Below, one piece after another: positions 13,544-36,115 of a DNA stretch of 64,000 nt. The translations under genes and the position numbers were made by a program. Position 1 is the stretch's first letter. Every line of letters begins with the position of its first letter. Source of the stretch: a virus; the IMG/VR virus record IMGVR_UViG_3300042294_003292, positions 1 through 64,000 of that record. One strand, given 5' to 3'. The notes below the pieces were generated by a model. That model had not been told where the DNA came from. It was given only the letters and a program-made list of their open reading frames with translations, and did not search any database.

Positions 13544-13775
13544 CTAGTTCGTACCCTGGCCCCTCATCGTGCTGGTGCGGATTAATTGCTGGCTTATATA
13601 AGACACCATCAATTATTCTCCAGGAAGGAGAAATGTCTTCAAACTGAGTTACCTCTATAATCTCAGGAGAAGAACGCATTCCAGCAATAACTGGCTCAAA
13701 AGTTGGTTCTTCTGGAATTCTCATTGTGTGAAAGATTTCACCATTTACGGCAAATGCAAAGATTTTATCTGTCAT
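13536..13775 (-). CDS. Hypothetical protein
   Basis: ATG 13775 preceded by TGATATAAT (leaderless). Confidence 0.6.
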   Translation of the reverse strand: MTDKIFAFAVNGEIFHTMRIPEEPTFEPVIAGMRSSPEIIEVTQFEDISPSWRIIDGVLYKPAINPHQHDEGPGYELDD

Positions 13776-18259: not shown

Positions 18260-18346
18260 TTATTTTTTAACTGGAAAAGACTTTCCGCCAACCTTAATTA
18301 CTGAGGGTAGATCTTTAGGGGTATTACTTACTCTTACAACTGGCAT
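18260..18346 (-). CDS. 28-aa small protein
   Basis: MPVVRVSNTPKDLPSVIKVGGKSFPVKK fills the gap between coupled genes. Confidence 0.5.
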   Translation of the reverse strand: MPVVRVSNTPKDLPSVIKVGGKSFPVKK

Positions 18347-18729
18347 TATAAGGACCCCGTAGTTACATCACTTAGAACTTTGATAGTTCCGATAAGTGGT
18401 GTCCAGATGGAGTTGTCCTCTAGTGTCACCTGCAAGTCAAATGGGAGCTCTGCTACAGTTTTAGTGAATCCAGATCCCCAAAATGCTGTTACTTCTGAAG
18501 AAACAATAATATTTACATATCCAGCATGGACATCGACTTCCAGTTCATCCAGGAAGTCTCCTCTGATGTCATAGGCGGTTGCAGCAAAAGACCAAGAAGA
18601 AGTGTCAAACTTAGTGACTTCGTCATCTTCTAGGAACTCTACTCTAATAGAGGCACTATCTCCTCTTACGACCTGCCAGGTAATATTGGCTGGGTCAGCA
18701 CCAAAAATTTCAGGGACACAAAGACTCAT
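18346..18729 (-). CDS. BppU_N-like domain protein
   Basis: VVRGDS...FDLQV...TPLIG.I.V..DVT. Confidence 0.55.
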   Translation of the reverse strand: MSLCVPEIFGADPANITWQVVRGDSASIRVEFLEDDEVTKFDTSSWSFAATAYDIRGDFLDELEVDVHAGYVNIIVSSEVTAFWGSGFTKTVAELPFDLQVTLEDNSIWTPLIGTIKVLSDVTTGSL

Positions 18730-18919: not shown

Positions 18920-19000
18920 TATAATCTTATATATATAATATATATAAATATATATAATATATAAATATTAAGTATATATTAATAATTAATATATAATAAT
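18920..19000. other. About 80-bp almost pure A/T tract
   Basis: Only 1 C and 1 G in the stretch; (TA)n runs. Confidence 0.85.
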
Positions 19001-19406: not shown

Positions 19407-20045
19407 ATGTCAGTTCAAATATTCGATAACTACATTTCAGGCGAACAAGCAAAAATAATAATTGATGGCTTGTCCCCTTACCTGGTAAAGAGTGATCGTA
19501 TCGGGATGTCTGAAGCTCAGTACGAAGATCCGACAAAAGCTCTCTTTAATATTTATGACGGTAAGCCAATTATCGACAACGAAGAGTCGCTAGACGCTGC
19601 AACTCTTTTTACGGAAATAGTAAATGATGTCGCAAAAGAGATCAGCAAATTTTATAATGTAGAGGCTGTGGTTGCAAGTTCGATTTTTGCAGAGGTTGCC
19701 GAAGGTGGGTTCAACGGACTTCATTGCGATAGCGTGATGCTGGATGGAACTCCGTGGGACGATAATAATGAAGCGCTGGATAATCTTGAGTTCTCGGCAC
19801 TAGTATATTTGAATACTTCGGGAGTAGATTACGAAGGCGGTCAAATCGAATTTCCAAATCAAAAGATCAGGGTAACGCCAGAAGCTGGGAAGATGGTTTT
19901 CTTTCGGGGCGATATTGATCACCCACATGAAGTCTTCGAAGTAACCGCAGGTAAAAGATATACGCTGGTTTTGTTTTATGGCAGGGCCAGTGAAGTCAAG
20001 CAATATCAGCGATTTTTGTCGGAGCGAGATTTCGGCGGTATATAG
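19407..20045 (+). CDS. P4H-like 2OG-Fe(II) oxygenase
   Basis: HCD...VYLN...YEGG...HEV...KRY. Confidence 0.9.
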   Translation: MSVQIFDNYISGEQAKIIIDGLSPYLVKSDRIGMSEAQYEDPTKALFNIYDGKPIIDNEESLDAATLFTEIVNDVAKEISKFYNVEAVVASSIFAEVAEGGFNGLHCDSVMLDGTPWDDNNEALDNLEFSALVYLNTSGVDYEGGQIEFPNQKIRVTPEAGKMVFFRGDIDHPHEVFEVTAGKRYTLVLFYGRASEVKQYQRFLSERDFGGI

Positions 20046-20138
20046 AGATACCATAACCACTATACAGTAAAACCCTGTAATATGGTTACTTGCACTAAAA
20101 AGCCTGACATGCTATAATATTTAAACAAGGTGGGTTAT

Positions 20139-20339
20139 ATGTCTGATGATGTACGATTTATAGACCTTTTCGATCCTAATCAGCCTAGGAGCGATAAAGA
20201 GCTTATCGAGTACAGGCTCAGTATCTGTAATCAATGTCCCTGGTTTAATAAGCGCCTAGTTAAGTGCAAACAATGTGGGTGCTTCATGAAACTAAAAAGT
20301 ACGCTAAAACAAGCTAAATGTCCAATAGATAGGTGGTAA
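20139..20339 (+). CDS. Small Cys-rich protein
   Basis: ICNQCP...CKQCGCFMKLK...CPIDRW; paralog of 13295..13543. Confidence 0.7.
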   Translation: MSDDVRFIDLFDPNQPRSDKELIEYRLSICNQCPWFNKRLVKCKQCGCFMKLKSTLKQAKCPIDRW

Positions 20340-20527
20340 AAGTGACTAGAGAAGAAGTTGTACAGAAGATGGTTGAAATCGCAGAAGCGTTTAACCTACA
20401 GGCTATTCAGGGTGCTGGTCTACCAGAGACTCAGATTGAGGAAATGGTTGCACAGGTTAGGCCACAGTTGTATACAATCCAAGGCGAGATTTATGATACC
20501 CTCGTCGAAGATGGAGTTATTCAGTAA
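20333..20527 (+). CDS. Hypothetical protein
   Basis: ORF overlapping upstream stop. Confidence 0.5.
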   Translation: MVKVTREEVVQKMVEIAEAFNLQAIQGAGLPETQIEEMVAQVRPQLYTIQGEIYDTLVEDGVIQ

Positions 20528-20627
20528 TTCTTATTAAGATGGATTCTGTGGAGTCTTGCAAGGACACTTGTCATTACAGCCACATGCCATCTTGTGCTTA
20601 ATAATCAACATGATATTATTATAATCT

Positions 20628-21383
20628 ATGATAGTAAAAGATCTTTCTAAGGATATTCTATATATCGAAAATGTCTTTGAACGTGCCCAGGACTTTGTCG
20701 ATGCTATAGAGAGATTCGATTCAGATACCCAAGTTCATCCTGTTATTCCAGCTTGGAGAGATTGGTATGACGGTGTTCCGTACCAGGATGAAGATGGTGT
20801 ATGGCAGGTTAACTATCATGATGCCCCCAAAGGAAAGCAAAAGCTATTTGATTGGAACATATCAGCTACTAACAATTATAGGGTGTGGCCACTTCCAGAA
20901 GATGATCTTGGAGACTATGCCCACAAGATAGCAAATCCAGTTATTCATTTAATTCACGAACCATATCTAAAGGTCCTAGATATTTGGTATGAGAAGACTG
21001 GACACAAGAAGCTAGATTATGTCTCTAAAAACTATACCCTGAAAAAATATAATACTGGTGGCTCTATAGGCACTCATATTGATAAGAATGATCAAGATCC
21101 AGGAAGCACCATGGACTATACCGTTCTTTTTTATCTAACAGATAACTATGAAGGTGGAGAGATAGAGTTTACAGAAGCAAATATAACTCTAAAGCCTGCA
21201 GCTGGAAGTGCTTTGATATTTAAAACCACAGAGCCCCATATGGCATATGAAGTAAGAGAAGGAGATAAATACTTTATCTTCATGTATATTCACACAGAGT
21301 TTGGACATTCCACCAGTTTGTATGAAGACTTTGTTGCCCTCAATAATTCTATTTCAGAATATAGGAAAAACCTAAATTCATAA
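20628..21383 (+). CDS. P4H-like 2OG-Fe(II) oxygenase
   Basis: HID...FYLTDNYEGGEI...HMA...K. Confidence 0.85.
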   Translation: MIVKDLSKDILYIENVFERAQDFVDAIERFDSDTQVHPVIPAWRDWYDGVPYQDEDGVWQVNYHDAPKGKQKLFDWNISATNNYRVWPLPEDDLGDYAHKIANPVIHLIHEPYLKVLDIWYEKTGHKKLDYVSKNYTLKKYNTGGSIGTHIDKNDQDPGSTMDYTVLFYLTDNYEGGEIEFTEANITLKPAAGSALIFKTTEPHMAYEVREGDKYFIFMYIHTEFGHSTSLYEDFVALNNSISEYRKNLNS

Positions 21384-21565
21384 AAATCTGAATATTTTTT
21401 AAATATGTACGATACACGATCACGCTAAAAAACACCAAATTACTAGAGCGCACACCACACCCCGTACGACCCATGTTATAAAAATGTTATAAGACACTAC
21501 GGCGTGTCTCCCCTAAAATGTCGTAGGGTGGTGCTAATGTATAAGTAGTTAGAAAGGATAAATAA

Positions 21566-21805
21566 ATGAACATAATGGAAATTAGAAAGAACGGAATTGG
21601 TTCTAACTTTTCTGTAATCAACCCAGAGGACGGATACCGCAAGGACAACCGCCTATGGTTCGGAACTTGTAGCGAGTGTGGTGAGAGCGTCACCAACTCA
21701 AGCCTAAAGGGTTCTTGGGTTCACTCTATTCACTCTCTAACAGAATACGCCCCTGGTAAGTTTGTGAACTCTTATCGTGATTCTGAGGTGTGTCCTAACG
21801 CATAA
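21566..21805 (+). CDS. Hypothetical early protein (CxxC)
   Basis: Own promoter, AGAAAGGA RBS. Confidence 0.7.
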   Translation: MNIMEIRKNGIGSNFSVINPEDGYRKDNRLWFGTCSECGESVTNSSLKGSWVHSIHSLTEYAPGKFVNSYRDSEVCPNA

Positions 21806-21849
21806 ATGTCGTAGGGTTATGCTAGTATCTAAATAGAAAGGATAAATAA

Positions 21850-22050
21850 ATGAGATACCAAAACAAATACTACCAGCCAGTAGATAGCCTAACACGCTAC
21901 GCTAAGGTAAACCTGCTAAACCTTCAGGCAGTAGAAGAACAAATAGACTTGCTAATCTCAATTAGTGATGACCCTAGTTGGGAAACTATCAAAGAGGTAG
22001 AAGGTCTAATCAAAGTAGCAAAATCACTTGGAACTAAGAGGAGTTGGTAA
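21850..22050 (+). CDS. Hypothetical early protein
   Basis: Own promoter, AGAAAGGA RBS. Confidence 0.7.
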   Translation: MRYQNKYYQPVDSLTRYAKVNLLNLQAVEEQIDLLISISDDPSWETIKEVEGLIKVAKSLGTKRSW

Positions 22051-22363
22051 TTGTGATAACCCTAACCTTTGAAACTTGGGAAGAGTTTGATAACGCTATT
22101 GGTTCTATTGTAGCTTTGGAGACTGCTATCGCTACCCCCAGCGAATAGCAAAAGTTTTCTAAAACACGGCGTGTCGTATTGACAATGTCGCCCATCTGGG
22201 CTCGGGCCCCCCAATATCTAGTAGTCCTAATTAAGTTAAGACACTAGATCTAGATCTCCCAGAATTATAACAAAATGATAACAAGTATCACGACACACCC
22301 CTAAATGTCCCCAAAATGTCGTAGGGTCGTGATAGGTTTTTAGTAGTTAGAAAGAAGGAATAA

Positions 22364-22549
22364 ATGAGTAGAAGAATGTGGCGTAAAACTGAATGTAAAG
22401 GCTGTGGCTATGTCCAAGAAACAAGCACTAGCTACTACCTAGACCGCAAGCAGTGGGACGCAAACCACCTGCCCTATCACTACAGCGTGTTGCCCAAGAA
22501 AATGTCTGAGGGTTATGCTAAGTTAGAACTATCAACGAAAGGAAACTAA
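22364..22549 (+). CDS. Hypothetical early protein (CxxC)
   Basis: Own promoter, AAGGA RBS. Confidence 0.65.
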   Translation: MSRRMWRKTECKGCGYVQETSTSYYLDRKQWDANHLPYHYSVLPKKMSEGYAKLELSTKGN

Positions 22550-22553
22550 ATAA

Positions 22554-22733
22554 ATGACTGAACAGATTTGCGTATTTTGTATGAACCTAGTCAATGACTA
22601 TGTTTGTTTTGAGTGTGATGACTACAAGGGTCTAATGCCACTAAAAGAGGCAGAGGCTTACTTGGGTGAGGATTTCCCAGAGGAATACCGCCAACCAATG
22701 TCTATCTATGGACAAAACCTAATCTGGCAATAA
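22554..22733 (+). CDS. Small Cys-rich early protein
   Basis: MTEQICVFC...CFEC; GAAAGGA RBS. Confidence 0.6.
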   Translation: MTEQICVFCMNLVNDYVCFECDDYKGLMPLKEAEAYLGEDFPEEYRQPMSIYGQNLIWQ

Positions 22734-22778
22734 TGTCAGACCCCTATGCTAGATTTGTAAAAACGAAAGGATAAATAA

Positions 22779-22949
22779 ATGGCTTACAACAGAGAATCAC
22801 ACGAACTACTAGACTCAGCACTAGAGGTTCTAAAGACTAAGGCTCAATACCCTTATGCCAGAATGGTTGGATACCTAATGCCTAATGTGCCACTAGAAGA
22901 TGCTAAGCGTATCGCAGAACTAATCCTAGAGTGGGAGGGCGACAAGTGA
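22779..22949 (+). CDS. Hypothetical early protein
   Basis: CGAAAGGATAAATAA-ATG. Confidence 0.6.
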   Translation: MAYNRESHELLDSALEVLKTKAQYPYARMVGYLMPNVPLEDAKRIAELILEWEGDK

Positions 22950-23321
22950 GTCTGTCAGTAGAAGAACTAGAAACCCTAATTTTCCAAATTGACCTAATGC
23001 TCTCAGAAGATAAAATGTCTGAAGGTGTTGGTAGTCTTTTTACAACTAGAGAGGATAACTAAATGATTTTCTATAACGGATTCAATCTAATGGTTGATTT
23101 GATTTTGGTTGCTGTTGTGTATGTAATTGCTCACGGCATTGGATACCGCAAAGCCAAAGACTTTTTTCAGCCCCCGTTCTAACGGCGTGTCGCCTTGACA
23201 AAGTGTCAGGGTGGCGGCCGAGCCCTGGATCAGATCGGGCCCCAATTTGTTTACGAATATTTTTACGACACTCCCAGAAAATCTCCCAATAAATGTCAGA
23301 GGGTAGATGTATAATAAAGCT

Positions 23322-23486
23322 ATGAAACTAGGAAAAGCTAATGAATCAAGACGCAAGGCGGAAAGTAAAGAACTATTCCGCAACTTACTAAAAGCTCCTC
23401 ACCTAGTTTCTACACCAGAAAAATACAAGGGAAGTCGTCAGTCTAACAATACTAAGGCTATTAGAGAAAGTAAGGCAGATGAGTAA
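23322..23486 (+). CDS. Small basic early protein
   Basis: Leaderless ATG after TATAAT; MKLGKANESRRKAESK... Confidence 0.5.
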   Translation: MKLGKANESRRKAESKELFRNLLKAPHLVSTPEKYKGSRQSNNTKAIRESKADE

Positions 23487-23609
23487 TTATAACTGTTGGG
23501 ACTGTAATAAGCTAACTAGACACTTATTCGAATACAGAACAATAAATGTCTGTGCCTCATGTTATGCTATTAGAGTTGGACACCCCTCAGCAAGAAAGTT
23601 GGTAAAGTA

Positions 23610-23912
23610 ATGGGAAGCTTACAAGCAAGCGAATTCGCTCAAATGGATGTTGATATTGAAACTGCCTTGGCGTGGCACTTGAAGGGTAATCACTATCCAC
23701 CAATTCCTAGCTCAATGATACAACCATGTATAGAGGCTATTGACGCTTATTGGGAAGAGGACTACAACAGACTAATCCAATTGCCAATTGATGGCGTAGA
23801 CCGTAATGGAGAGCCGTTCCAAATTAGATGGCGTGATGGCTCAGACAAGGCTCCCGCTTGGGCCCTAGTTGAACACGCTCACCTTGACGCTTGGCTACCT
23901 GAAATAGAATAA
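23610..23912 (+). CDS. Hypothetical phage protein
   Basis: HLKGNHYPPIP...HLDAWL pattern. Confidence 0.7.
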   Translation: MGSLQASEFAQMDVDIETALAWHLKGNHYPPIPSSMIQPCIEAIDAYWEEDYNRLIQLPIDGVDRNGEPFQIRWRDGSDKAPAWALVEHAHLDAWLPEIE

Positions 23913-23954
23913 ATGTCAGACGTAGTCTGTATAATTATCTAAGAAAGGACCCCT

Positions 23955-24674
23955 ATGCCCCTAATACGTTCAAAAGATAGAAAGGTTACAAATGCGGTAT
24001 CTCCGAATGGTAAGTCGCCCACTATTGCTAACACCTTTGGGCTTCCGTCTGGTAAAGCGTTTTCCTGCCCTGGAGCAACTAGTGTATGCGAGAAAATCTG
24101 CTATGCGGGTAAACTAGAGAAAATCTATAAAGGCGTCAAGGACGTCCTTCTAACCAATTGGGACCTGCTACGTAATGCAGACCAATTGGAAATGGAAGCG
24201 CTATTGTTCCAAATGATAGATGAGTTTGATAAAGACTGTAACAAGCGCAATGCAGAAAAGCTGTTTCGAATTCACTGGGACGGTGACTTCTTCAATGAGA
24301 CTTATACTCACGCTTGGAAGAATGTAATCCTTGCATTCCCTTCCATTCAATTCTGGGTATACACCCGTTCAGACTTTGCGGTACCTATCCTTAGCGATGT
24401 TTCTAACTTATCACTGTACTTCTCAACTGATGATGATAACTGGCAGCTGGCTAGTGAGTTGAAGAAAGCCAATGGCGTTAAGCTTGCATACCTTGCTCAA
24501 AATTTTGCAATGGGTAAAGAGCGGATGTTGTCTATCACGCCTAAGTCTGCAATTCCTTGCCCTGAGAATGCGAAGAAACTTCCGCTAATCAGTGACAAGG
24601 GTTCCGCCTGCGTTACTTGCGGACAGTGTGTTTTTGCACGTAATGACATTTTGTTTAGCGCTAGTAAAAAGTAA
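23955..24674 (+). CDS. GP88-like Cys-rich (putative Fe-S) phage protein
   Basis: SCPGATSVCEKICYA, FRIHWDGDF, FWVYTRS, CPE...CVTCGQC. Confidence 0.7.
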   Translation: MPLIRSKDRKVTNAVSPNGKSPTIANTFGLPSGKAFSCPGATSVCEKICYAGKLEKIYKGVKDVLLTNWDLLRNADQLEMEALLFQMIDEFDKDCNKRNAEKLFRIHWDGDFFNETYTHAWKNVILAFPSIQFWVYTRSDFAVPILSDVSNLSLYFSTDDDNWQLASELKKANGVKLAYLAQNFAMGKERMLSITPKSAIPCPENAKKLPLISDKGSACVTCGQCVFARNDILFSASKK

Positions 24675-24828
24675 GGGGATGAGGTAAAATATATCATGGA
24701 CACTTTCTACATTCTATTGATTTTATTTCTCATGGCCCTGCTACTAGTTTCTAATAATAGAAAATAGAATCATGCTATAGGGGCATGTTAACCTAGGGAT
24801 CTTGTTATATCCTTTCTTAGGTCCCTGG

Positions 24829-24855
24829 CGTCCTGGCCACGACGATAAACTGGCC
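24829..24855 (+). ncRNA. 27-nt H-type pseudoknot motif, copy 1
   Basis: CGTC-CT-GGCCA-C-GACG-ATAAAC-TGGCC. Confidence 0.7.
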
Positions 24856-24964
24856 ACATTTCGGCCCGAGCCGCTTTATAACAAAATGGTAACAAGTTTA
24901 CGACACGTCTCAAAAATGTCCTAGGTATGATGTATAGTAATACTACCTAAAAAGAAAGTAGAGT

Positions 24965-25528
24965 ATGGGAACTAGAGGAATCACAGAAGTAGTTTACAAT
25001 GGTGAAATTGTTGTTAGCCAGTATGGTCAATGGGACCACTACCCAAGCGGTCAGGGTATCACAGCGTTCAAGTTTCTACGCAGTCAAGAAAACATTGACA
25101 ACCTAAAGAAAAATCTTGCCCTAGTCTATGTTCCAAGTGATGACGAATACAAAGCTATTGTAAGCAAGTATTCTGATGAGCGTGGAATGATGACTATGGA
25201 ACAGGGTGATGAGTTCAACAAGATGTATCCAAGTCTAACCAGAGATACTGGTGCTGGTATCCTTGAGATTATTGCTAACGCAACTGAATCAGTCCCACTA
25301 TTTTTGGACCTAGAGTTCAAAGATGACAGACTATTCTGTGAAGGTGTTTATACAATCAACTTAGATGACAACACTTTCACAACTAGATACAATCGCTACG
25401 AAAATGACAATGATGAAGATGTTTATACTTTATCTTTTGAGCAGATTCTTTACACGGGTGAAGATGACTATCTTGAAAGAGCAAAGTGTGGAGTCTATCA
25501 GTATCAAAAGTCTGAGGCTTTAGCCTAA
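24965..25528 (+). CDS. Hypothetical phage protein
   Basis: MGTRG...QYGQWDHYPSGQG; own promoter and RBS. Confidence 0.75.
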   Translation: MGTRGITEVVYNGEIVVSQYGQWDHYPSGQGITAFKFLRSQENIDNLKKNLALVYVPSDDEYKAIVSKYSDERGMMTMEQGDEFNKMYPSLTRDTGAGILEIIANATESVPLFLDLEFKDDRLFCEGVYTINLDDNTFTTRYNRYENDNDEDVYTLSFEQILYTGEDDYLERAKCGVYQYQKSEALA

Positions 25529-25535
25529 CAAGATA

Positions 25536-25562
25536 CCCTGCCAGCTTGACAAACTGGCGGGG
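25536..25562 (+). terminator. Hairpin after 24965 gene
   Basis: CCCTGCCAG-CTTGACAAA-CTGGCGGGG. Confidence 0.45.
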
Positions 25563-25749
25563 ATCTGCTCGGCCCCAAAACTAGGCGTTTGTCAAGTTTA
25601 CGATTATAACAATTTTTCCCCTGAATTGTTATAAATAACTTGGGCGTGGCTCTTGATAATGTCGGAGGTATGCCCTATAATTTAGGAGTAGCAAAAACGA
25701 CTACTAAATAGAAAAATCCTAGTGGAAAGACTAGGTGAAAGGAAGCAAA

Positions 25750-25905
25750 ATGGCAAATGTAATTGCCCCCGTTGTTGGCTCACAATACACTACTCAGAAA
25801 TCAGGCGTTTCTGGGATTGTTCAGGAAGTTGTCGCAAACAAGACTGGAACTTTCCGTGTCCGTCTTGATGTAAATGGGCAGCCTCGCTGGACTACTATCA
25901 AGTAA
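25750..25905 (+). CDS. Small hypothetical protein
   Basis: GAAAGGA RBS; MANVIAPVVGSQY...RWTTIK. Confidence 0.6.
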   Translation: MANVIAPVVGSQYTTQKSGVSGIVQEVVANKTGTFRVRLDVNGQPRWTTIK

Positions 25906-25916
25906 TAAATTAGTTT

Positions 25917-25953
25917 GAGGGGGTAGAGTTATTTATCCTTTCGCTACCCCCTC
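25917..25953 (+). ncRNA. Hairpin with anti-RBS loop
   Basis: GAGGGGGTAG/CTACCCCCTC stem; loop TTATTTATCCTTTCG is the exact complement of 22764-22778. Confidence 0.55.
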
Positions 25954-26013
25954 TCCTAAAATGTCTGACCCTGCCCCTATAATGTAATTACCCCAAATAG
26001 AAAGTAGAAACAA

Positions 26014-26460
26014 ATGGCTAGAACCCTGTCCGTAAAAGTTCCAACAAGCAAACTAATCGCAGACATTGAGCAGTCTATCGCTAAGATTGACGCAGACATT
26101 GAGGCGTATTCTGGATTGCGTAAGAAGTATGAAGCAGACATCAAGCAGTATGAGAAAGACCTTATTGCTTATGCTGTAAAGGCACTACAAGACCCAAACA
26201 ATGTTGGCACAGACCACAACTCTCTAATTCGTGTATCAACCAACAACTACCGCAACTCTGTATCTGTTGATTTTGATACTGAGGGTCTTGGTTTCCCAAA
26301 GAAGCCAGAAGAGCCAGCAAGACCAAATGAGAAGACCTACTTTGGTAGGGACTACACCACACGCAAGGAAATCCTAGAGAAGAACCTGCGTATTCTAAAG
26401 ATGACCTCTCAAGAGGAAGTATCAGCAAGTTCTTACTCTGCTGTGATTGACCTAATCTAA
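26014..26460 (+). CDS. Hypothetical coiled-coil protein
   Basis: Own promoter, AGAAAGTAG RBS. Confidence 0.75.
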   Translation: MARTLSVKVPTSKLIADIEQSIAKIDADIEAYSGLRKKYEADIKQYEKDLIAYAVKALQDPNNVGTDHNSLIRVSTNNYRNSVSVDFDTEGLGFPKKPEEPARPNEKTYFGRDYTTRKEILEKNLRILKMTSQEEVSASSYSAVIDLI

Positions 26461-26469
26461 TTAGGGAAA

Positions 26470-26496
26470 CGACCTGAGCAAGTCGCTAAACTGCTC
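26470..26496 (+). ncRNA. 27-nt H-type pseudoknot motif, copy 2
   Basis: CGAC-CT-GAGCA-A-GTCG-CTAAAC-TGCTC. Confidence 0.7.
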
Positions 26497-26700
26497 TCCC
26501 CTTGGCACAAATACTGCGTGATCTGATCACCCAAAGCTGAAGCCAGGGGGATCTTCCCGTTTTTGGCTCGGGCCGCCGTTACCAAATTGTTATTTTAAGA
26601 AGTCTAATTATTTTGCCCCAGATTCTTGACAATGTCAGAGGGTGGCTGTAAAATAGTCTCAACAAACAAATAACTAATAACCCTAATAGAAAGTAGAAAA

Positions 26701-27702
26701 ATGGCACATTTGCTAGAACAGTCCGCAACAGGCGAAACCGCTTTTGCTTCTTTTCGTGAGCCAGCTTGGCACCAGCTAGGCACAGTTTTCAATGAGGAAG
26801 TCTCAACTAACAAGATGTTGAAACTCGCACACCTTGACAACTGGAATGTTCGCTTGGAAGATGTAGCAATTCCAAATGGTTTTGAGAGTGACAAGAATTA
26901 TTTCTTCGTGACTAGAACTAACCCATTCAACAAGCAACAGAATGATGTTCTTGGCGTTGTTGGTGAAAGATACAATGTTCTTCAGAATGAAGACTTGTTT
27001 GATTTTGGTGATGCCCTGCTGGACGGCGGTCGCTGGGAGACTGCTGGTTCTATCAAGAACGGCAGACAGGTTTTCGGTTCTCTTGCTCTTGAGCGTGAAA
27101 CAGTTCTTGACCCTAACGGCGTTTCAGATGTTGTGAAGTCTTATTTGCTAATCAACACTAGCCACGACGGCTCAGTTGCTATTCAGGCTTCTATCACACC
27201 TGTTCGTGTTGTATGTGCTAACACTCTAAACCTTGCTCTTGGTAAAGGCAACAGAGGTGTCAAGCAGTCTTTCAAGATTCGCCACACCCAAACCGCTTCA
27301 GGCAAAGTTGCTCAGGCTCGTGAGGCTCTTGGTCTTGCTAATAAGTATCTTGATGAGTTTGACAAGCTTGCTCAGTCTATGATTGAAAAAGAATTGACTA
27401 AGGCTCAGTTTGACAAGATTGTTGAGCTGGCTTACCCAAAGCCAGACAAAGATACCAAAGGTGCTGTCAAGAAGTGGGAAAACAAAACAGACATTCTTCA
27501 GAGTATCTATGTTGGTTCAACTAACGGAATGATTGCTGGAACTGCTTGGGGTGCTTTCAATGCTCTAACTGAGAGACTAGACTGGTATCGCACTGCTAGA
27601 GGTGGCTCTAACGAATCTATTCTAGCAGCTGCTTCTGGTTTTGACCCTGTGACTACCGCAGAAAAAAACAGACTGCTTCAGTTGGTCTTGGCTAACAGCT
27701 AA
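26701..27702 (+). CDS. DUF932 / TIGR03299 phage-plasmid protein
   Basis: REPAWHQLG, ETAGSIKNGRQVF, NTSHDGS, TPVRVVCANTL, IRHT, GTAWGAFNA. Confidence 0.85.
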   Translation: MAHLLEQSATGETAFASFREPAWHQLGTVFNEEVSTNKMLKLAHLDNWNVRLEDVAIPNGFESDKNYFFVTRTNPFNKQQNDVLGVVGERYNVLQNEDLFDFGDALLDGGRWETAGSIKNGRQVFGSLALERETVLDPNGVSDVVKSYLLINTSHDGSVAIQASITPVRVVCANTLNLALGKGNRGVKQSFKIRHTQTASGKVAQAREALGLANKYLDEFDKLAQSMIEKELTKAQFDKIVELAYPKPDKDTKGAVKKWENKTDILQSIYVGSTNGMIAGTAWGAFNALTERLDWYRTARGGSNESILAAASGFDPVTTAEKNRLLQLVLANS

Positions 27703-27708
27703 CCAAAA

Positions 27709-27734
27709 GTCCTGGGCATGACCAAAAACTGCCC
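27709..27734 (+). ncRNA. H-type pseudoknot motif, copy 3
   Basis: GTC-CT-GGGCA-T-GAC-CAAAAAC-TGCCC. Confidence 0.65.
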
Positions 27735-27895
27735 TCCATTCACACTTGACAAGATCGCAATTTTCGGGCCGAGCGCCTAAAGTAAAATTAGTTAATAAAA
27801 AATACCAATTACGAAGTGGTAAATAATTTCCCAGAAATCTTGATAATGTCAGAGGCAACCACTATAATGTAACTACCCTAAAAGAAAGTAGACAA

Positions 27896-30800
27896 ATGCC
27901 CAAATACTATGTAAAGATGCGTATTGACTTTGCTGGAGAAATTGAAGCAGAATCTAAAGAGGCAGCAGAAGACCTAGCTTGGACTAGCTGGGGTGATTCA
28001 ATGGACAATGAAATAACCTATGATGGTGTTTATGACATTGACGTTGAGGAAATTGAGGATGACGAGGAAGACGAGGAATAAATGTCCTACCCTAGTGTTA
28101 TAGTGGATACTATGAATGCCCCTGTTGAATGCCCCAATCACAATGGTTCTTTTGACTGTAATCCTTTTTGTCGTTTGTGTGAGGGAAACCAGGAAACAAC
28201 TCTAGACGAAATGCTATACCAAGCAGATTCAGTATCGTTTGATGGTTGTCACAAAATCTATCTAAACATGGACGCCAAGCAGACTGAGAAGATGGTTGGC
28301 TATGGTTATGACAAGACTATTAGTGATACACCTGCTGCCATGAAAGACCTAGTCTTTTCTTGGTATGAAGATTCTTGTAGTCTCAGATTCATTGACGCTG
28401 TATTTACTGATGACGACGAGACTGACAAGTTTATTACTGTTATTGGACAATTCTTTGGAGAGGACGAAGACGAATGAAAGAGTGGACTCAGTTCATAAAC
28501 AAGACTGACAAGAATGAGTTTGAGACTTTGCTAGCAGACATAATGTCAGAGGCTCTTGCTAAAATAGACTCTATCCCTGATGAAGAATTAGAAAGGCTAG
28601 TTGACTGTGAGTAGTCCTATGAAAAAGTATGTAGTTACTTATACCGCTGAGTATGTGGTAGAAGCTCTTGACGAAGAAGAAGCTATTGACCAAGCGATAG
28701 AGATACACTTTGAATTACCTGACGGAAGCTGGGAGGCAACTCTTGAAAACTAATGAAGAAATCATTGAGTATCTTACTAAAGACATTCAAGAGCTAATGC
28801 CTGAGAGAGAGTCTCTTGACATCAACGATTCCTATGGCGACTACCTTGATGGCATCATTGGTAGAAGCCAGTCTGTCCTAAGAATGATGGGTGTTCCAGA
28901 AGTTCTTATCCCGCAGAATGGAGACTGCTAATGTATAGCAAGATTTGGACTGTTGAGAAAGATGGAGAACACGTTCCGATTGTCTTTGTTACAAAGAAAG
29001 ACGCTGTGGAGTGGATAGCAGAAAAAGAGAATCCAGATAAGTACACATACTACAAGGAGACAGATAAGTAATGGCTGTATCAGAGATGGAACAGATTGGC
29101 TATGAGCAGGGTATGGTTGATACCCTTGCTTATGTAGAAAGAACAATAACAAAAGCTATGGACAATCCTGCGATGGACATCTTGACACCACGACAGGTAC
29201 TGGGTATACTATTGGCATCTATCAGAATACAAGAAGAGGACGAATAAATGGCTTGGGTAACTAACGATGGTGAATACAATGGCTCTTCCCTTGTGTTGGA
29301 GTTTGACTTCAATGCCCTCAACGAACAGCAGTGGTCTAACCTAGAGGACATGTCTTCTATGGACAGGCTTGACTATGTTGAGGCTATCCTTGCTGGAGAT
29401 GACGACAAAGTTCGTCACATTGAGCTTGATAACTTTACAGAGGAGTGGGGTCTGGAGTAATCCAGGCCTTACGGCCTCGGGCCATCTTAATATAAACTGT
29501 TTAACCCCAAAAAACCTTTACGATCCTTTGAAAAATTTTCCCAGATCTATTGACAATGTCGTAGGGTTAGTGTATAGTAATAGCTAGTAGGAAGGAAACC
29601 CAATGAGACAATCTGTCATGGTAAATAAAATTGATACTGATAAGCTAACCAAGCTGTTGTATTGGAAGGCTGTTGAGGTTGGATCTGATTCAAGACCTGA
29701 AGGTGAATCAATGGTTGTTGTCAATACCCCAAAAGGTTTAGCTACCGTATGCCATGAAGGCGTTGGATGGTGGAAGAATGACGACAACAAGTACCTTGTA
29801 GGTGGCTACATTGGATACAGCAACCCTACGTACTACATCACAGAAGATGAATTACTATCCTGTTTGTCAGATGAGATGGTAGATCTAGCAAGTTTTATAA
29901 ATACCTTTGGGGATAGGCTAGAGAACAACTACAGCTTATGGTACCACCAGGTAAAGGACACCCCACAAAATGTCAGTGGGTTGGCGTATAATCATTAAGA
30001 AAGGAAAGTAGATGCCCCTCTATAAAATACAACGAGAGTACACCAACTGGGAAGAGATTACAGTTGAGGCTGATTCAGAAGACCAGGCACTGGAGCTGGC
30101 TGAGGATGAAGATACATGGGAGTATGCATATGATGTTAACTCATATAATTACACAGGCGAGACATGGATTGAGGAACAGTAATGGCAAAGCACGTACACT
30201 ACTATAGCTATGGCGCTTGCACCTGGTGTGGCAAGAAGGTCAACAAAGGCCTTGGCGTGGATCTATACCGTGGAAAAAAAGTTTAAGAACCCTCTTGACA
30301 AAACCCCAGAAATTTGAGACAATAGTTTTACCCTAGAGAAAGTATAACCCCAATGCACGTAATACAATACATTGCAACAAAAGCAGATGACACCAGCCAT
30401 GCATTCAACTCTGTCAAAAACTATCTTGAGGAACAGCTAGGTAGCGGAGACAACTACAACACTTGGTATGACTGGTTCATAACAGGCGGAGGACGTTGGG
30501 CCTCTGGAGAAGACAATCAGTATAACGATAACTATCAGGGTGATGTAGTTCATCAGTCTGACCCTAAGTTTGAGGAATACCTAGATACCGCTCACAAATA
30601 CAGGCAGCAGGAGCTATCAGAGTATGAGGCTCAGGCACGTAAGATAAATCTAACAGAACTATTAGACAGCCTTCAAGACTTTGAGTTTGACCACTTCAAG
30701 GCTGGTATGGAGCTATACCCTATTAAGAAGCTGTATGACCTATGCATGGGTGTATGGGACTATCAGTCTTACTTCTTTGACATTGATAACGATAGCACCA

Positions 30801-31649
30801 GCAGAAAATATATGCGTGAAAGTATTGACAAAGGAGCAGATAGCTGGTATCTTGTTCCTGTGGACTTCCATTTTTAGAAAGTAGGAGCAATGGAAATGAC
30901 AAAAGTAGAACCGCAGTACACAGAGTATCAGGGCTGGAATGAGTGGGCTGATAAGTACAAGCCAATCAAAAACCATCTTGTTTCTGACCCAGACCAGCAG
31001 ATGTTTGAGACCTATGGCGAAGAGCTGGAGTATGTTCAGTCTGTTGAGCCTAACCGTATCTGGACCTACCTACAGGGAGACATGTCTGACCTTATTTGCG
31101 CAGGCTATCACTTTGTAAACAGGATTGGTTACTACATCACTGAGGTACCTTGGACCAACGAAGATGACTATGTCCTTCTATCAGTAGAAGAAGAGTGTAA
31201 GTGTTACAGCGAAGACGAAGATGTCATGGCAACCCGCAACGATGAGTATGGGGACCCAAGCTGTGTAGAGTGCGAAGGGTATGGATATGTCACAAACTAT
31301 GTATAGAAACAAGAACAGAAACAAGACTCTTATTGACTATGACCTTAACATCTACATGCCTGAAGAGTACGACGACATATCAGATGAGTACTACTTTGAC
31401 CCAAGTAACTGGAAGATTCATGTCTACATTGTTAACGACCGTGGCCACGAGGAATGGGATGAGCCGTTGCATCTGACAGCTGAAGAGATTAGGCACCTAG
31501 GCCTAAACAGGGAATCGTACTTCAAAGACGAACAAGACGTCTGGTACGGCCTGGAGGGATTTAGGTTAGACTATTGGGATAGGATGTCCGATAGGCTGAA
31601 GGAATATTTCGATCGCCTGCCTAAGTACGTAGAGGACGTAGGTCCATAA
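27896..31649 (+). CDS. Run of small, mostly acidic hypothetical genes (27896-28081, 28112-28477, ~28740-28931, 29248-29460, 29603-29998, 30353-30877, 30890-31306, ~31299-31649 and shorter ORFs)
   Basis: Co-oriented, tightly packed ORFs with RBSs; no recognisable domains. Confidence 0.6.
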
Positions 31650-31661
31650 TTAAATAAGGAT

Positions 31662-31767
31662 TGATGCGTTGAGCTGAGCTCCGCATCATGTGAGATACGA
31701 CAGTTAGGGGTAGCTAGCGTATCTCAAGGGGTGTCAAGACTTTTCCTACTTTCAGTCTTGACACCCC
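31662..31767 (+). ncRNA. Three consecutive hairpins, last with anti-RBS loop
   Basis: TGATGCG..CGCATCA; TGAGATACG..CGTATCTCA; GGGGTGTCAAGACT/AGTCTTGACACCCC with loop TTTCCTACTTTC. Confidence 0.5.
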
Positions 31768-31812
31768 CACCAATTTGTGGGATAATACACATAGGAGAAT
31801 AACCAGATTGAG

Positions 31813-32002
31813 AATGAGTGATGAGGAAAAGGTCGCAGTAAAAATCACTGGACTTCTCTCTGACCATAGGCTAAACTTAGATAGGGTTGGCTTGTATGTG
31901 GCAAGAGAAGAACCAAGTAGCAATTACAGACGACTGATGATTGTGGCGGAAGCCGCTGATGAAGAATGGGAGAGTAGGTATGGCAGACACGACAGAGTAT
32001 AG
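31813..32002 (+). CDS. Hypothetical protein (start approximate)
   Basis: MSDEEKVAVKI...; downstream of TTGACA-N17-GATAAT. Confidence 0.5.
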
Positions 32003-32261
32003 AACACAGATAGAAGTCCTAGCAGAACTTTGGATGGACTATCGTGATGACGAAGCATTTGCCGAATTGTTTGAGTATGCTGATTTGGGCTTTCCCCTTT
32101 CCTATGCTCTGGACAACGGAGTTGTGGATTCAACTGTTCACGCAGAGAAACTTATCGAAAGCACATTTGATTTGCTACTCAAACTTCTTGCCGTTGAGGA
32201 CACAGGGTTTGAGAGCCTGAACGATTTGCTTGACACAGCTGAGCAGAAGAATCAAAAGTAA
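31980..32261 (+). CDS. Hypothetical protein, paralog of 37759..38034
   Basis: LAELWMDYR...EYADLGFP...VEDTGF. Confidence 0.7.
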   Translation: MADTTEYRTQIEVLAELWMDYRDDEAFAELFEYADLGFPLSYALDNGVVDSTVHAEKLIESTFDLLLKLLAVEDTGFESLNDLLDTAEQKNQK

Positions 32262-32516
32262 TCTAGTCTAACTTCCTGATCCTGGTTATCAGGGGGGTAG
32301 GCCCGAGTACCTTTATCAAAATGTTATAAAACCACTATTGACAAACCTTATTACGATGGTATATAATATTTCCCTGAAATTTGATCGATGCCTATCCAAA
32401 CCTCAAACCTTATTTAAATAAACATATTACGATCAGATCAAAAAAATCGCTGAAATATTTGGCTATAAGGGTTTGGGTATTTTTAGAAGTCTTACCAAAC
32501 ATGATATACTTTATAC

Positions 32517-32711
32517 ATGAGTCCAAGAAACTATCTAAGAGTCTTTCATCCAGAAGAAGCCAGGAAGATTGATCAGGGATATTCTGATGCTGGTATTATA
32601 GTCGTTAATGTATTTACTAGAGCTATAAGGTTTATGTTTCCTTTCTTTGTGCCTCGGGCTGAAGAGTCTATCAAGACTGATAATGATAATGCCGAAGGCA
32701 TCAAAGAATAA
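32517..32711 (+). CDS. Hypothetical protein (coordinates approximate)
   Basis: TGATATACT shortly before ATG. Confidence 0.45.
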   Translation: MSPRNYLRVFHPEEARKIDQGYSDAGIIVVNVFTRAIRFMFPFFVPRAEESIKTDNDNAEGIKE

Positions 32712-32883
32712 CCCCCTTCCCCCCTATATAAATAACATTACGAAGAACAATTATTTTTCCCTGAAATATAAAACCTTTTAAATCTTTTTGGCCAGATTTC
32801 ATTTAAAATGGTTTAGTTTTTTATATTTTTATGGCCATATTTTGTATAAAAAATGCTTGACATTTGACGGATATTATGATATA

Positions 32884-32910
32884 GGGGTTTGGGGGTATAG
32901 GGGTTTGGGG
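32884..32910 (+). repeat. G-quadruplex-type tract
   Basis: GGGG-TTT-GGGGG-TATA-GGGG-TTT-GGGG. Confidence 0.7.
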
Positions 32911-33265
32911 TTTGAAATGATTACGAGTTTAAGTTAATATGTGCTCCATTCTCCACTATCCTCCATATCACTCCACTTTAACTCTATTAAACTTAATAAA
33001 CAGTAAGATCTTTTAGTCTAAAACCATGTCCAAAACATACTCTAAATAGCCCTAGAATGGATTCTGACGGGGTATTCAAACCTTCGTAAGACGGATATGG
33101 GGTTATCTTCGATTACGTCTTTTCTTGGTTTCATCTAGCTCAAATAGCACCAAAACCACAGCTGCCAATAGGAAAGATCCCACCAAAGAACATACTAACA
33201 AATACGTATTATCCATACGTATAAGTATAACTTATTATGTATTTATATAGGGGGTGGAGGTTTGC

Positions 33266-33853
33266 TTATTCGATACCGTCGGAGATTCCAGCATCTCTTA
33301 TCTTACGTACTTCATCAAAGATAGGGTCATCCTGGCTATACCGCATGTGCGAATAGTCTACCTCACCTGTGGCATCTGGAAACCTAAAGAAGATCATTGT
33401 GACGAACTCTCCTTCTTTAAAGGTTTTATGTGGTCTCCAGTGTGGATACTCGTTGGGGTTAAATATGATAGCCTCATTGTCTTCCATCTCGAAGACTTCC
33501 TTGTCTACCCCAAGACCCCATGTCGTATTGGACTTGTATTGGTAGTCAATGATTAGGTCATTGGTATCACCATCATAATGTGGTGGCAGGTTAGGCTGAC
33601 CATACTTAGCCTCATAGTCCACAAACATGCCAGACATTGGTTGTAGTGGTCTTCCCACTAGAAGCTCAACTCTCATCTTGATAGACTCTAGCATTGAGTT
33701 CGGAAGAAATACCGCATACATTATCCTACCTAGAGTTGGGTCTTCCTTTTTCTCTGACCTGGATGTCCACTCTTCTTCGTCAGTTAGCAAGTAGTGGATA
33801 GTCTCTAGCTCTTCTGGGAGGAGGAAGTCTTTGACCCTGTATACGTTTTCCAT
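33266..33853 (-). CDS. 2OG-Fe(II) oxygenase-like protein
   Basis: VKDFLLPEE, LPPHYD, PHWR. Confidence 0.7.
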   Translation of the reverse strand: MENVYRVKDFLLPEELETIHYLLTDEEEWTSRSEKKEDPTLGRIMYAVFLPNSMLESIKMRVELLVGRPLQPMSGMFVDYEAKYGQPNLPPHYDGDTNDLIIDYQYKSNTTWGLGVDKEVFEMEDNEAIIFNPNEYPHWRPHKTFKEGEFVTMIFFRFPDATGEVDYSHMRYSQDDPIFDEVRKIRDAGISDGIE

Positions 33854-33861
33854 GAAGTCTA

Positions 33862-34074
33862 TTATACCAGGATGTCCTTCAGGTGGGAAAAGATGGTCTC
33901 CTGATAGAGGGGTGTCCTTGTCCTATGAGACTGCTCTTCTAGACTATTTATTTCATTAAGAATACGCTGTCTCTCGTCCCTCTTTACCTTCTCTAGAAAG
34001 TCATTAATTGCCTTTGCATCTGACTTAGACATAGCTGAATTTAGGACTAGCATTCCGTGTTCGTAGTTGATCAT
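33862..34074 (-). CDS. Hypothetical protein
   Basis: ORF with ERQRI motif shared by neighbours. Confidence 0.5.
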   Translation of the reverse strand: MINYEHGMLVLNSAMSKSDAKAINDFLEKVKRDERQRILNEINSLEEQSHRTRTPLYQETIFSHLKDILV

Positions 34075-34300
34075 TTCGTTACCTTATAAAGTAGCCACCA
34101 AGCAAATAGGATTCCAAAGGCTACATAGTATGCCCAGGCAGCCCCTAGGATATCTCTCATAAATTGGTCCATTGTTTTCCTTAAGTGAAAGTTATTGTTC
34201 TTTTAATGAAAGTATACAGGGAATGGTAGAGAATGTCAAGACGGAGTCTTGTTGTGATCTCTTATTTACCGCCGAGCTTTTTGCGCCCGAACTTTAATTG

Positions 34301-34374
34301 TAGGATGACTGGGACTTGAACCCAGGACCGACGGATTATGAGTCCGTTGCTCTAACCCGCTGAGCTACCATCCC
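34301..34374 (-). tRNA. tRNA with CAT anticodon (Ile2-like or Met)
   Basis: GGGATGG acceptor, TAGCTCAG D-arm, ACGGA-CTCATAA-TCCGT anticodon arm, GTTCAAGTC T-loop; no CCA. Confidence 0.85.
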
Positions 34375-35637
34375 AGGGCTTTATGACAATATCTAAATCA
34401 GGATACTCTTCTATAATCCTTTTACGAGCATGTCCAATATCGTGCCCTGCCTGTTCGTGCTTGTCTAGGTGTGCCAGCGCATTGCGTGGTGTGCTAAAGC
34501 TAGCGAAAAAGTCGTCGGCCTCTATAGATAACCCAAGGCCACTTAGCCAACATCCACAGCACTCAATAAATCCATCTACATGCTCAAACATATAGATGTC
34601 TGATGTACTAAATCTTTCAAAGCTCATTTAATCTTCTCCCCTAATTAGTACAATTATATCGCAAATTCGGCAGGCCATTCCTTCGTAGTGGGTCTTACCA
34701 TTGTGCCCCGTTTCTACATGCAAAATTTCAATAATTCTATCTTGCTCATATTTTGCTCCCTGGGCCCAGGTATCAGACTGAAGCCTGTATAGCTGCTCTG
34801 GAGTCAGCTTGGCAGGATCCAGCATATCCCTCACTTCTTATAGCCTCTCCAAAACGAATAAACATATCTGCCCAAATAAATATTTATTCCCTTATACTTT
34901 GGGTGAACATCAATAACAAATCCGAAGAACTTATTTGGCTCATACTTGTGTGGACCGTGTTTGCGATAGTTAATCCATTTCTTCTTTAGCCTGTCTTGCA
35001 AGTCTTTGTCTGTGTAGCCTTCTGCGTGTAGGCTTGCCATCTTAGCCATTCTGCTCTCCCTCTGAATGCCAGAACTCTATGCCCATGTAAAGGTTTAGTA
35101 TCTCAAATGTGAATGATCTATCATATAAGTTAATGTTTGCACCAATGCCCCAGTGATCTGTTCTACCAGCATAGAAACATATACTATTAAATAGCACAAT
35201 GCTTCCTGATAGGCCCCAGCTACTCTTTTCAATCTTAATCCACTTACTCATCTGTCTCTCCTTTGATTAGTTCAATGGCATATGCATAACTAGGTGCAGA
35301 GCAGTCTTCTGGATAACAGCCCAGCTCACAGTCTCTATGTTCGGCAAGAGGCTCTAACAATTTAATGATACGCTCACGCTCATAATCTCTGCCAGCGTTC
35401 CAATACTTCTTGTCACTAATAGTGTAATCAGTTAGCCCCATGCTCTACCCAGTCTCCCTTATAGGTAAAGTTTACTCCCATGCCAGGCAGGTAGACGCAA
35501 ATCTCGTCTGGCTCTAGGTATTTGGTTTGCTTATCAGATGTGATAAGGAACATCCACGTTCCCTCCGATATAGGCGTTTCTACATCTATATCACTCATAA
35601 GATTAATATATGTATCACGTTTAGCTGTTACAAACAC
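34352..35637 (-). CDS. Six small hypothetical genes (34352-34627, 34628-34834, 34831-35049, 35042-35251, 35244-35441, 35428-35637)
   Basis: Overlapping stop/start coupling; TTGACA-N17-TAAAAT promoter near 35664-35692. Confidence 0.6.
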
Positions 35638-35720: not shown

Positions 35721-36115
35721 ATGGACCTGTCTCACTTGACGCCACAAGAAAAGGTGGCATATATCACCTCTAGAATTAAAGACCCATGCCCAGATGGCCA
35801 GCATGTTTACGAAGACCTGGTAAAGGTTTTGGGCAAGTCAACAATTCTTGATCAAATCTGCACTGTTTGTTTTAATTTTCAGGGATGGATATACAACTGG
35901 GAAAAACAAGACTGATGGTATAATAAAAAACTATGTCAAGAACACAACACGAATTTGAGGAGCTTGAGTCTCCAGTTACCCTAACCGTACACACTAAGTC
36001 TCCAAATAAGTGGCTACTTATAGACAGAGAGACTGGTGTTGCATATCAGGGGTCAGAGCATGGTAGATGGGATAAGCTGATTCCCAAAGTTAAAGAAGAA
36101 AAACCACAGATATAA
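35721..36115 (+). CDS. Two small hypothetical genes (35721-35915, 35933-36115)
   Basis: Each ATG preceded by TGGTA(A/T)AAT -10. Confidence 0.5.

Follow-up and report, generated by a model that had tools for sequence, protein, structure and literature searches.

Conserved hairpins with loops complementary to the ribosome-binding sites of an early-gene module in a freshwater phage clade: a possible RNA brake on translation

Why should the hairpins that close the early transcription units of a phage carry large open loops that are complementary to the ribosome-binding sites (RBSs) of the phage's own genes? The question is raised by the virus record IMGVR_UViG_3300042294_003292 of the IMG/VR database, a single sequence of 72,326 bp whose first 64 kb are analyzed here (the window; G+C content about 41%, five tRNA genes). 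On its plus strand, between 21.5 and 31.4 kb, lies a module of small, putatively early genes, and an earlier note on this DNA had singled out three hairpins in or at the end of this block (a, b and c below) as likely antisense to its RBSs. The complementary and conserved loops described here suggest, short of proof, an RNA-only brake on early-gene translation. The reading that we prefer, namely that these are the 3'-end hairpins of early transcripts and that their loops pair with early RBSs and so limit translation, is put forward tentatively, at somewhat less than an even chance.

Hairpin a (25917-25953, plus strand) consists of a perfect 10-bp stem with seven G-C pairs and a 17-nt loop, AGUUAUUUAUCCUUUCG. 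In a 56-nt context it has a folding free energy of -20.5 kcal/mol (z = -4.85; 0 of 200 shuffles as stable); it begins 12 nt past the stop codon of a small gene (25750-25905, plus strand) and abuts the next promoter. Hairpin b (24793-24828, plus strand), with a 10-bp stem that includes two G.U pairs and a 16-nt loop, UGUUAUAUCCUUUCUU, is located in the untranslated 3' region (3'-UTR) of a gene assigned to the mycobacteriophage family GP88 (23955-24674), 119 nt past its stop and 27 nt after a 23-codon open reading frame (ORF). Of the three hairpins this one is the weakest (-15.8 kcal/mol, z = -1.98, with 7 of 200 shuffles as stable); its G.U pairs had been said to work on the plus strand only, and the minus strand indeed adopts a different fold of -12.5 kcal/mol. 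Hairpin c (31728-31767, plus strand) has a 14-bp stem with eight G-C pairs and a 12-nt loop, UUUCCUACUUUC (-26.2 kcal/mol, z = -5.48), and is the last structure of the module, 79 nt past the stop of the gene at 31281-31649. Two extra hairpins directly 5' of it (31662-31726, plus strand) complete a three-hairpin array (31662-31767) behind that gene, for which we calculate -60.6 kcal/mol over 156 nt (z = -6.52); four of the related loci introduced below (L001, L009, L012 and L015) have the middle hairpin as well. Hairpins a and c are the two G+C-richest among the 47 long perfect inverted repeats of the 72-kb genome.

These are not ordinary terminators. The stems are as G+C-rich as those of intrinsic terminators (10-14 bp, 5-8 G-C pairs), but the loops of 17, 16 and 12 nt, and of 10-21 nt in relatives, exceed the usual length of about 3-8 nt, and the bases that follow the stems (TCCTAAAATG, CGTCCTGGCC and CACCAATTTG) form no T-run. 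With their long loops and no T-run, a, b and c fall outside the definition of an intrinsic terminator, and none of them is among the 13 sites returned by a terminator scan. A scan of positions 20000-34500 against Rfam 15, at E-values up to 1, returned only the tRNA and a chance match on it. N4-type DNA hairpin promoters, which have 3-nt loops, were also considered and are ruled out by the 10-21-nt loops and the G.U-rich stems found here.

The RBSs that face these loops are peculiar to the module. Gene calls were crude, and with this proviso GAAAG is found upstream of 16 of the 22 starts in the plus-strand block, compared with 10 of the 105 other ORFs, while GGAG or GAGG precedes 4 of the 22 and 40 of the 105. 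GAAAGGA and GAAAGTAG RBSs are thus a dialect of the module, and its two RBS types, AGAAAGGAUAA and AGAAAGUAGGAAA, differ from the AAGGAG/GGAGG sites in the rest of the genome.

When the loops are set against these sites, the complementarity that the earlier note had described is recovered in full. The reverse complement of loop a, CGAAAGGATAAATAA, has a single other occurrence in the genome, at 22764-22778 (plus strand), directly before the ATG at 22779; it is exact over 15 nt, with a predicted duplex of -18.6 kcal/mol. A 14-nt version precedes the ATGs at 21566 and 21850, where the RBSs (both AGAAAGGATAAATAA, class 1, at 21551-21565 and 21835-21849 on the plus strand) give predicted duplexes of -17.1 kcal/mol each; the RBS at 21551 also matches 10 nt of loop b. 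With up to one mismatch allowed, the complement of loop a matches the window at four places, namely the three RBSs and loop a, where 100 shuffles give an expectation of 0.00. Loop b complements AGAAAGGATA (21551 and 21835) and AAGAAAGGA (23941 and 29997), all just before ATGs, and the AAGAAAGGA copy at 23941-23949 (plus strand; 9 nt of loop b) is the RBS of the GP88-family gene, in the same transcription unit as hairpin b. Loop c complements GAAAGTAGGA at 30877 together with the GAAAGTAG RBSs before the ATGs at 24965 (GAAAGTAG, 24954-24961, class 2), 26014 (GAAAGTAGAAAC, 26000-26011, class 2), 26701 (GAAAGTAGAAAA, 26689-26700, of the DUF932 gene, where 11 of 12 positions fit the loop c complement) and 27896 (GAAAGTAGACAA, 27884-27895, class 2), all on the plus strand. 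Its best partner is the RBS GAAAGTAGGAGC (30877-30888, plus strand) before the ATG at 30890, in its own unit, with 10 nt and -14.5 kcal/mol. Up to two mismatches, the complement of loop c has 16 matches against 8.63 +/- 2.62 expected, and none of 100 shuffles reaches 16.

Predicted loop/RBS duplexes are likewise stronger at the 22 module starts than at 78 other starts (mean for loop a, -10.2 compared with -7.1 kcal/mol). Shuffled loops, the control that had been proposed for the phage starts, reach the observed mean duplex energy in 0, 5 and 13 of 300 cases for a, b and c, respectively. Over the window and the related loci, 144 sites are exactly complementary over 9 nt or more to a loop from the same source, and 128 of them end no more than a few bases from an ATG.

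Part of this complementarity would be expected of any pyrimidine loop that resembles the tail of 16S ribosomal RNA (rRNA), and the match goes further than that. The loops form two classes, one of the UUAUCCUUUCU type (class 1, with hairpins a and b) and one of the UUUCCUACUUUC type (class 2, with hairpin c). Class-1 loops present UUA opposite the UAA that follows GAAAGGA, whereas in class-2 loops an A faces the U of GAAAGUAGG and UUU faces the AAA that follows, in each case past what the RBSs share with the 16S tail. Since the complementarity is class-specific beyond the 16S tail, two RBS classes face two matching loop classes, as had been claimed for the module. By predicted pairing, each hairpin exposes an unpaired pyrimidine loop complementary to several Shine-Dalgarno (SD) regions, which is what characterizes anti-SD regulatory RNAs; each also lies past a stop codon in what is presumably the same transcript, the position of a 3'-UTR element.

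The element is not confined to this genome. A search of IMG/VR with the 148-residue protein encoded next to hairpin a returned 25 related loci (L001-L025; 48-86% identity). Hairpins with CCTTTC or TACTTTC loops number 42 (34 distinct) and occur in 24 of the 26 sources, that is, the window and 23 of the 25 loci; L019 and L024, in which there is no such hairpin, are both short on the downstream side. All 42 are on the gene-sense strand and none is inside a called ORF. CTTTC is the commonest loop 5-mer of strong sense-strand hairpins (27 of 127), compared with 0 of 102 on the other strand. The loop types (..UUAUCCUUUCU.., UGUUAUAUCCUUUCUU, CUUACUUCCUUUCU, UUCUUAUUCCUUUCUUU and UUUCCUACUUUC) sit on unrelated stems: in L002-L004 the loop of hairpin b is unchanged and its two stem arms are exchanged, and L001 has a variant stem. 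The stems contain 355 Watson-Crick, 41 G.U and 13 A.C pairs, and in 30 of the 34 distinct hairpins the plus-strand form is the more stable. RNA made from the minus strand only had been named as a finding that would speak against the idea; the G.U pairs, which work on the plus strand only, point the other way.

Hairpins of the c type could be followed further in IMG/VR. A scan with the pattern GGGG-N8-14-TTTCCTACTTTC returned 63 stretches with 64 motif matches, and these are cleanly bimodal: 25 have stems of 10-17 bp (18 distinct sequences) and 39 have no more than 6 bp. The same 12-nt class-2 loop core is carried by 18 further distinct c-type stems; L022 and L023 keep no more of it than CCUACUUUC. 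Given that the stems stand in different registers relative to the loop, MAFFT-based consensus folding was replaced by a covariance model built from eight members. The resulting alignment favors the structure supplied to the model and also contains the same palindromic hairpins read from their reverse strands; in it, 93.6% of cells are paired compared with 78.0% in shuffles (0 of 500 as high), 13 of the 15 stem pairs have changed on both sides, and sliding the partner lowers the paired fraction to 41-57%. A direct count over 24 distinct sense rows gives 298 of 313 cells paired and double changes in 12 of 15 pairs. A second scan, with CCTTTCT-N7-16-CGTCCTGG, returned at least 119 stretches and at least 12 more true members (at least seven distinct); of the remainder, at least 100 matches have no stem and the others look like chance matches. 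The conserved loop and covarying stem expected of an anti-SD RNA are therefore found together on the transcribed strand, and conservation of the loops in relatives, on which the earlier note had made its proposal depend, holds in 23 of the 25 loci. The comparison supports the view that these hairpins form an element that is conserved and under selection, and that its working strand is the plus (mRNA-sense) one.

The structures themselves, their strand and non-ORF position, the conserved loops on covarying stems, and the RBS complementarity with its two matched classes are established features of the locus; from them we infer stable RNA ends, pairing in the cell and repression. The hairpins, which lie in untranslated sequence where early transcription units have their 3' ends, would act through both of their parts: the stem probably makes or shields the 3' end of the RNA, and the large open loop would present a pyrimidine sequence complementary to the RBSs of the module. 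As hairpin-bearing RNA ends accumulate, the loops would base-pair with early RBSs, chiefly in trans but in some units on their own mRNA too, and would thereby rival the 16S rRNA tail and lower initiation; the duplex would perhaps also offer RNase a double-stranded substrate. The outcome would be a self-limiting or timed shut-off in which late genes, with their GGAGG-type sites, are spared.

Several observations weigh against this proposal. Mean best complementarity is 9.86 nt to RBSs of the same locus (n = 42) and 9.36 nt to those of other loci (n = 478), and because of this small difference the earlier suggestion that loops track the RBSs of their own phage had to be dropped except at the level of the classes. 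L001 has an identical loop a whose best partner is 11 nt rather than 15 nt long, because the RBS spacers differ. When AGAAAGTAGG was searched in the whole records of five relatives, four (L009, L010, L025 and L007) held it once each; the first three keep the c-type loop, and none of the sites read (those in L009, L010 and L007) coincides with an RBS. The strongest partners in L009 reach about -12 kcal/mol, one of them being GAAAGAAGGAA with one central mismatch, and it appears that the c-type loop persists in one lineage without a perfect partner site. A target on the same transcript is not consistently the best match, and hairpin b taken alone is statistically unremarkable (z = -1.98). The hairpins are presumably co-transcribed with the genes that they would repress, so that a timing mechanism must be assumed. 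Part of the c-type conservation could lie at the DNA level, because the promoter that comes next has its -35 hexamer inside each such hairpin. Finally, the 21 sequencing runs in which the phage DNA was found are all lake or freshwater metagenomes, with no RNA run among them.

How well do other explanations account for the same facts? If the hairpins were structural 3' ends and nothing else (terminators, insulators between crowded promoters or blocks to 3' exonucleases), with loops kept by common descent or by recombination between modules and no pairing, their position directly behind stop codons and before promoters would follow, as would a loop-independent role at the places where some relatives have short-loop or TGNNNA..AAAC..TNNNCA hairpins instead, and the plain tetraloop hairpins in the homologous module of the Streptomyces phage Jay2Jay. 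Neutral loops, however, would hardly persist as the class-2 core does on its 18 further stems, or survive a swap of stem arms as the class-1 loop does; loops of 10-21 nt weaken a terminator, and the missing T-run and the absence of the hairpins from the terminator scan also tell against this account, which we consider unlikely. A purely cis-acting role is less likely again: every loop would bind an RBS of the mRNA that carries it, in the manner of icaR or hbs, and tune translation or decay of that unit. It draws on the 9-nt partner of b (at 23941) and the best partner of c (at 30877), which lie in the units of these hairpins, as is also the case in L001 (b, 10 nt), L005 (11 nt) and L015 (c, 13 nt), but it does not fit loop a, whose best partners are 3-4 kb upstream past several promoters and whose own unit offers 7 nt only, nor most relatives, in which the best partner is not within 1.6 kb upstream.

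The resemblance to 16S rRNA has to be weighed in its own right. The Gram-positive 16S tail ends in a pyrimidine run containing CCUCC and then UUUCU; class-1 loops share UCCUUUCU with it, and the loop of L023, CCACCUACUUUC, departs from the tail region by roughly one position. Loops of this kind might be decoys for a tail- or pyrimidine-binding protein or nuclease, with RBS complementarity as a side effect, and the greater conservation of the c-type loop than of its supposed RBS partners would suit such a role. The loops, however, leave the tail exactly where the phage RBSs leave the perfect SD (UUA against UAA; A against the U of GAAAGUAGG), which is predicted by pairing and not by mimicry, and no candidate binding protein was identified; we regard the decoy as improbable. 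The loops could instead silence host mRNAs with GAAAGGA-type SDs and leave phage genes alone: any extended AGAAAGGA-type SD would offer class-1 loops 8 nt to pair with, and phage late genes would be less affected, as the mean duplex energies above indicate. Against this stands the better fit of the loops to phage-specific extensions than to the consensus SD, and the odds for it are slim. Slimmest of all are those for an element of the DNA, located upstream of a promoter or bound by a protein in double-stranded or cruciform form. Every c-type hairpin in IMG/VR has a TTGNCN -35 hexamer within its 3' arm, 3-5 nt past the loop, and an extended -10 comes after it (in the window, a promoter-like site at 31758-31786 on the plus strand, with TTGACA in the 3' arm of c, a 17-nt spacer and a TG-extended GATAAT; the next gene has a canonical AGGAG RBS), and hairpin a adjoins a promoter as well. 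Varying arms around a conserved spacer are nevertheless the opposite of a palindromic operator, G.U pairs are many, and the b/d-type hairpins and the L023 hairpin are not beside a -35.

The pairing of 3'-end loops with early RBSs can be extended to a more ambitious proposal, which we think doubtful as it stands: that a freshwater actinophage clade possesses an RNA-only translational timer, made of a private SD dialect (AGAAAGGAUAA / AGAAAGUAGGAAA) and matching anti-SD loops. These loops would resemble the 16S tail yet fit the phage sites better, so that accumulating RNA ends would outcompete ribosomes on early (host-takeover-like) messages only, and translation would switch to GGAGG-type middle and late genes without a protein repressor.

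The genes around the hairpins suggest how the loops may have arisen. The small gene at 25750-25905 encodes 51 amino acids (48-51 in the family, with 18 invariant columns among 17 aligned sequences) and is kept in all 25 loci; it and its homologues always precede a conserved hairpin. That hairpin is of class 1 in L001, L008, L014-L016 and L018, has a class-2 loop in L023 and an unrelated loop in L019, and is a TGNNNA-N7-12(..AAAC)-TNNNCA hairpin in others; at the position of c, L005-L007 and L011 have a short-loop hairpin. In the homologous Jay2Jay module, which has GGAGG RBSs and tetraloop hairpins only, no anti-RBS loops were found. Our reading of these comparisons is that the anti-RBS loop would be a functional feature acquired in this clade by a general 3'-end hairpin. 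The 51-residue protein is predicted to be a small four-stranded beta-barrel (predicted local distance difference test score, 82.9). It has no Pfam family and no match in the PDB with E < 0.05, and a search of the Atlas with the model gave only a weak R67-DHFR/SH3-like lead; an RNA chaperone would be one candidate role.

A second hairpin motif accompanies the first. TGGCCA-N11(..AAAC)-TGGCCA stands directly after hairpin b (24834-24856, plus strand), with further copies at 26475-26497 and 27713-27735 (plus strand) and in the 53079 region (minus strand). Its general form is a covarying 6-bp TGNNNA/TNNNCA stem with a 10-15-nt loop ending in AAAC; every related locus has two to five sense-strand copies, and the other strand has none in 23 of the 25 loci and one each in two. 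It is found at the ends of early transcription units, often directly 3' of an anti-RBS hairpin and immediately so in hairpin b and its relatives, and it may act as the true terminator, mark a processing site or bind a protein. On the 5' side, the hairpins just before b (24771-24787) and c (31691-31726) have UAGGGG in the loop (UAUAGGGG and ..GUUAGGGGUAGCUAG), and their relatives show AAGGGGU or GAGGGGU; a weak loop-loop contact with the neighboring CCU-containing loop is conceivable.

The promoters of the module have features of their own. AATGTC-NN-AGGG(T) lies between the -35 and -10 elements of nearly every one (e.g. TTGACAATGTCAGAGGGTGGCTGTAAAAT at 26626); 16 of the 19 plus-strand copies are in the module block (21517-29555) and the minus strand has two. 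The motif may be bound by a regulator or be a signature of this module's promoters. Six of the module's intergenic regions (22199, 24863, 25567, 26565, 27766 and 29473) contain, in either orientation, the G+C-rich near-palindrome GGCYCGRGCC, upstream of an A+T-rich stretch and a promoter; Jay2Jay has CCGGGCCC...GGGCCCGG hairpins at comparable places. Outside the module, TATAAT lies within 24 nt upstream of the ATG in 12 of the 105 ORFs (as crudely called), among them 10962-11408, 11663-12073, 13536-13775, 17153-17524, 18346-18729, 35933-36115 and 49500-49802, and in several it ends 6-9 nt before the ATG, with no SD. This suggests leaderless or very short-leader messages, which are common in Actinobacteria. 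A dense cluster of pure A/T palindromes (TATATATA repeats) between divergent gene blocks, at 18927-18995, may be an origin or a DNA-unwinding element.

The phage itself belongs to a clade of uncultivated freshwater phages, putatively of Actinobacteria. Its terminase and DUF932 proteins are about 55% identical to counterparts in large Streptomyces phages (Stanwilliamsviridae, e.g. Jay2Jay), in which the homologous block sits in the terminal repeat. A near-identical DNA search of an annotated phage collection returned no match, and a distant-similarity search of the same collection matched the DUF932 gene only, in Streptomyces phages. Because of these Streptomyces-phage-like proteins, the GP88-family gene and the exclusive occurrence in lakes and other fresh waters, the host is probably a freshwater actinobacterium. 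Phage isolates that infect 'Ca. Nanopelagicales' are reported (PMC10202952). Among the differences listed for the contigs of four DNA runs, none is inside the hairpins. A contig of one run (X8) joins position 25983 to 27881 through 11 other letters, skipping the 148-residue and DUF932 genes; since both ends of this junction fall in repeated promoter/5'-leader sequence, the repeats seem to act as recombination points between gene cassettes.

How does this arrangement compare with known ways of silencing early genes? Phage early-gene shut-off is known mainly through proteins, such as T4 RegB and RegA (a nuclease and a repressor, respectively), or through transcriptional switches, and the host-takeover module of the Bacillus phage SPO1 consists of many small early genes, each with a strong promoter and RBS. 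The present module is similarly a block of many small early genes with strong promoters and RBSs of its own; we know of no anti-RBS hairpins in SPO1. A literature search, made without subscription journals and supplementary files, found no description of anti-RBS loops on phage early-gene hairpins. As in T4, where RegB and RegA reportedly shut off early genes post-transcriptionally (PMC3014915), early genes here would be turned down at their RBSs, and RBS sequence separates early from late messages; the proposed effector, however, is an RNA encoded inside the early module, whereas T4 uses proteins.

The closest parallels are bacterial. The C-rich loops of Staphylococcus aureus RNAIII, and RsaE-type small RNAs, pair with SD regions, and the resulting translation arrest can be coupled to RNase III cleavage (PMC2837412). 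The phage hairpins share with RNAIII an exposed pyrimidine loop on a stable hairpin, the RBSs of several mRNAs as partners, and several loops of one class serving many targets. They differ in that their loops are U/C-rich and 10-21 nt long where RNAIII uses UCCC motifs, that they end protein-coding early transcripts and form no dedicated small RNA, and that their targets would be the phage's own module; pairing in the phage, moreover, is a prediction from sequence. In the 3'-UTR of icaR mRNA, the anti-SD motif UCCCCUG pairs with the SD, blocks initiation and feeds RNase III, and its authors leave open whether it acts in cis or in trans (PMC3868564); Bacillus subtilis hbs is reported to provide another 5'/3'-UTR contact (PMC5737220). 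An anti-SD sequence in a 3'-UTR, with cis or trans action undecided, is thus common to icaR and to the phage. The icaR case concerns a single host gene and a single motif, whereas the phage elements are a family that extends over many phage genomes and has at least two loop classes, a covarying hairpin presents each motif, and targets in the same unit are not consistently the best.

The comparative signal, conserved loops on covarying stems, spans dozens of independent metagenomic genomes and makes the pairing idea directly testable without the uncultured host. If confirmed, it would amount to class-specific translational control by a phage through two short features alone, a private RBS dialect and anti-RBS loops. 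These two would make a compact and portable kit for controlling translation orthogonally in Gram-positive hosts, and the phage example would also join the small set of bacterial 3'-UTR anti-SD elements. The principle of anti-SD pairing is known from those systems; new here are the covarying family of phage hairpins, its two loop classes and the module-specific RBS dialect that they face.

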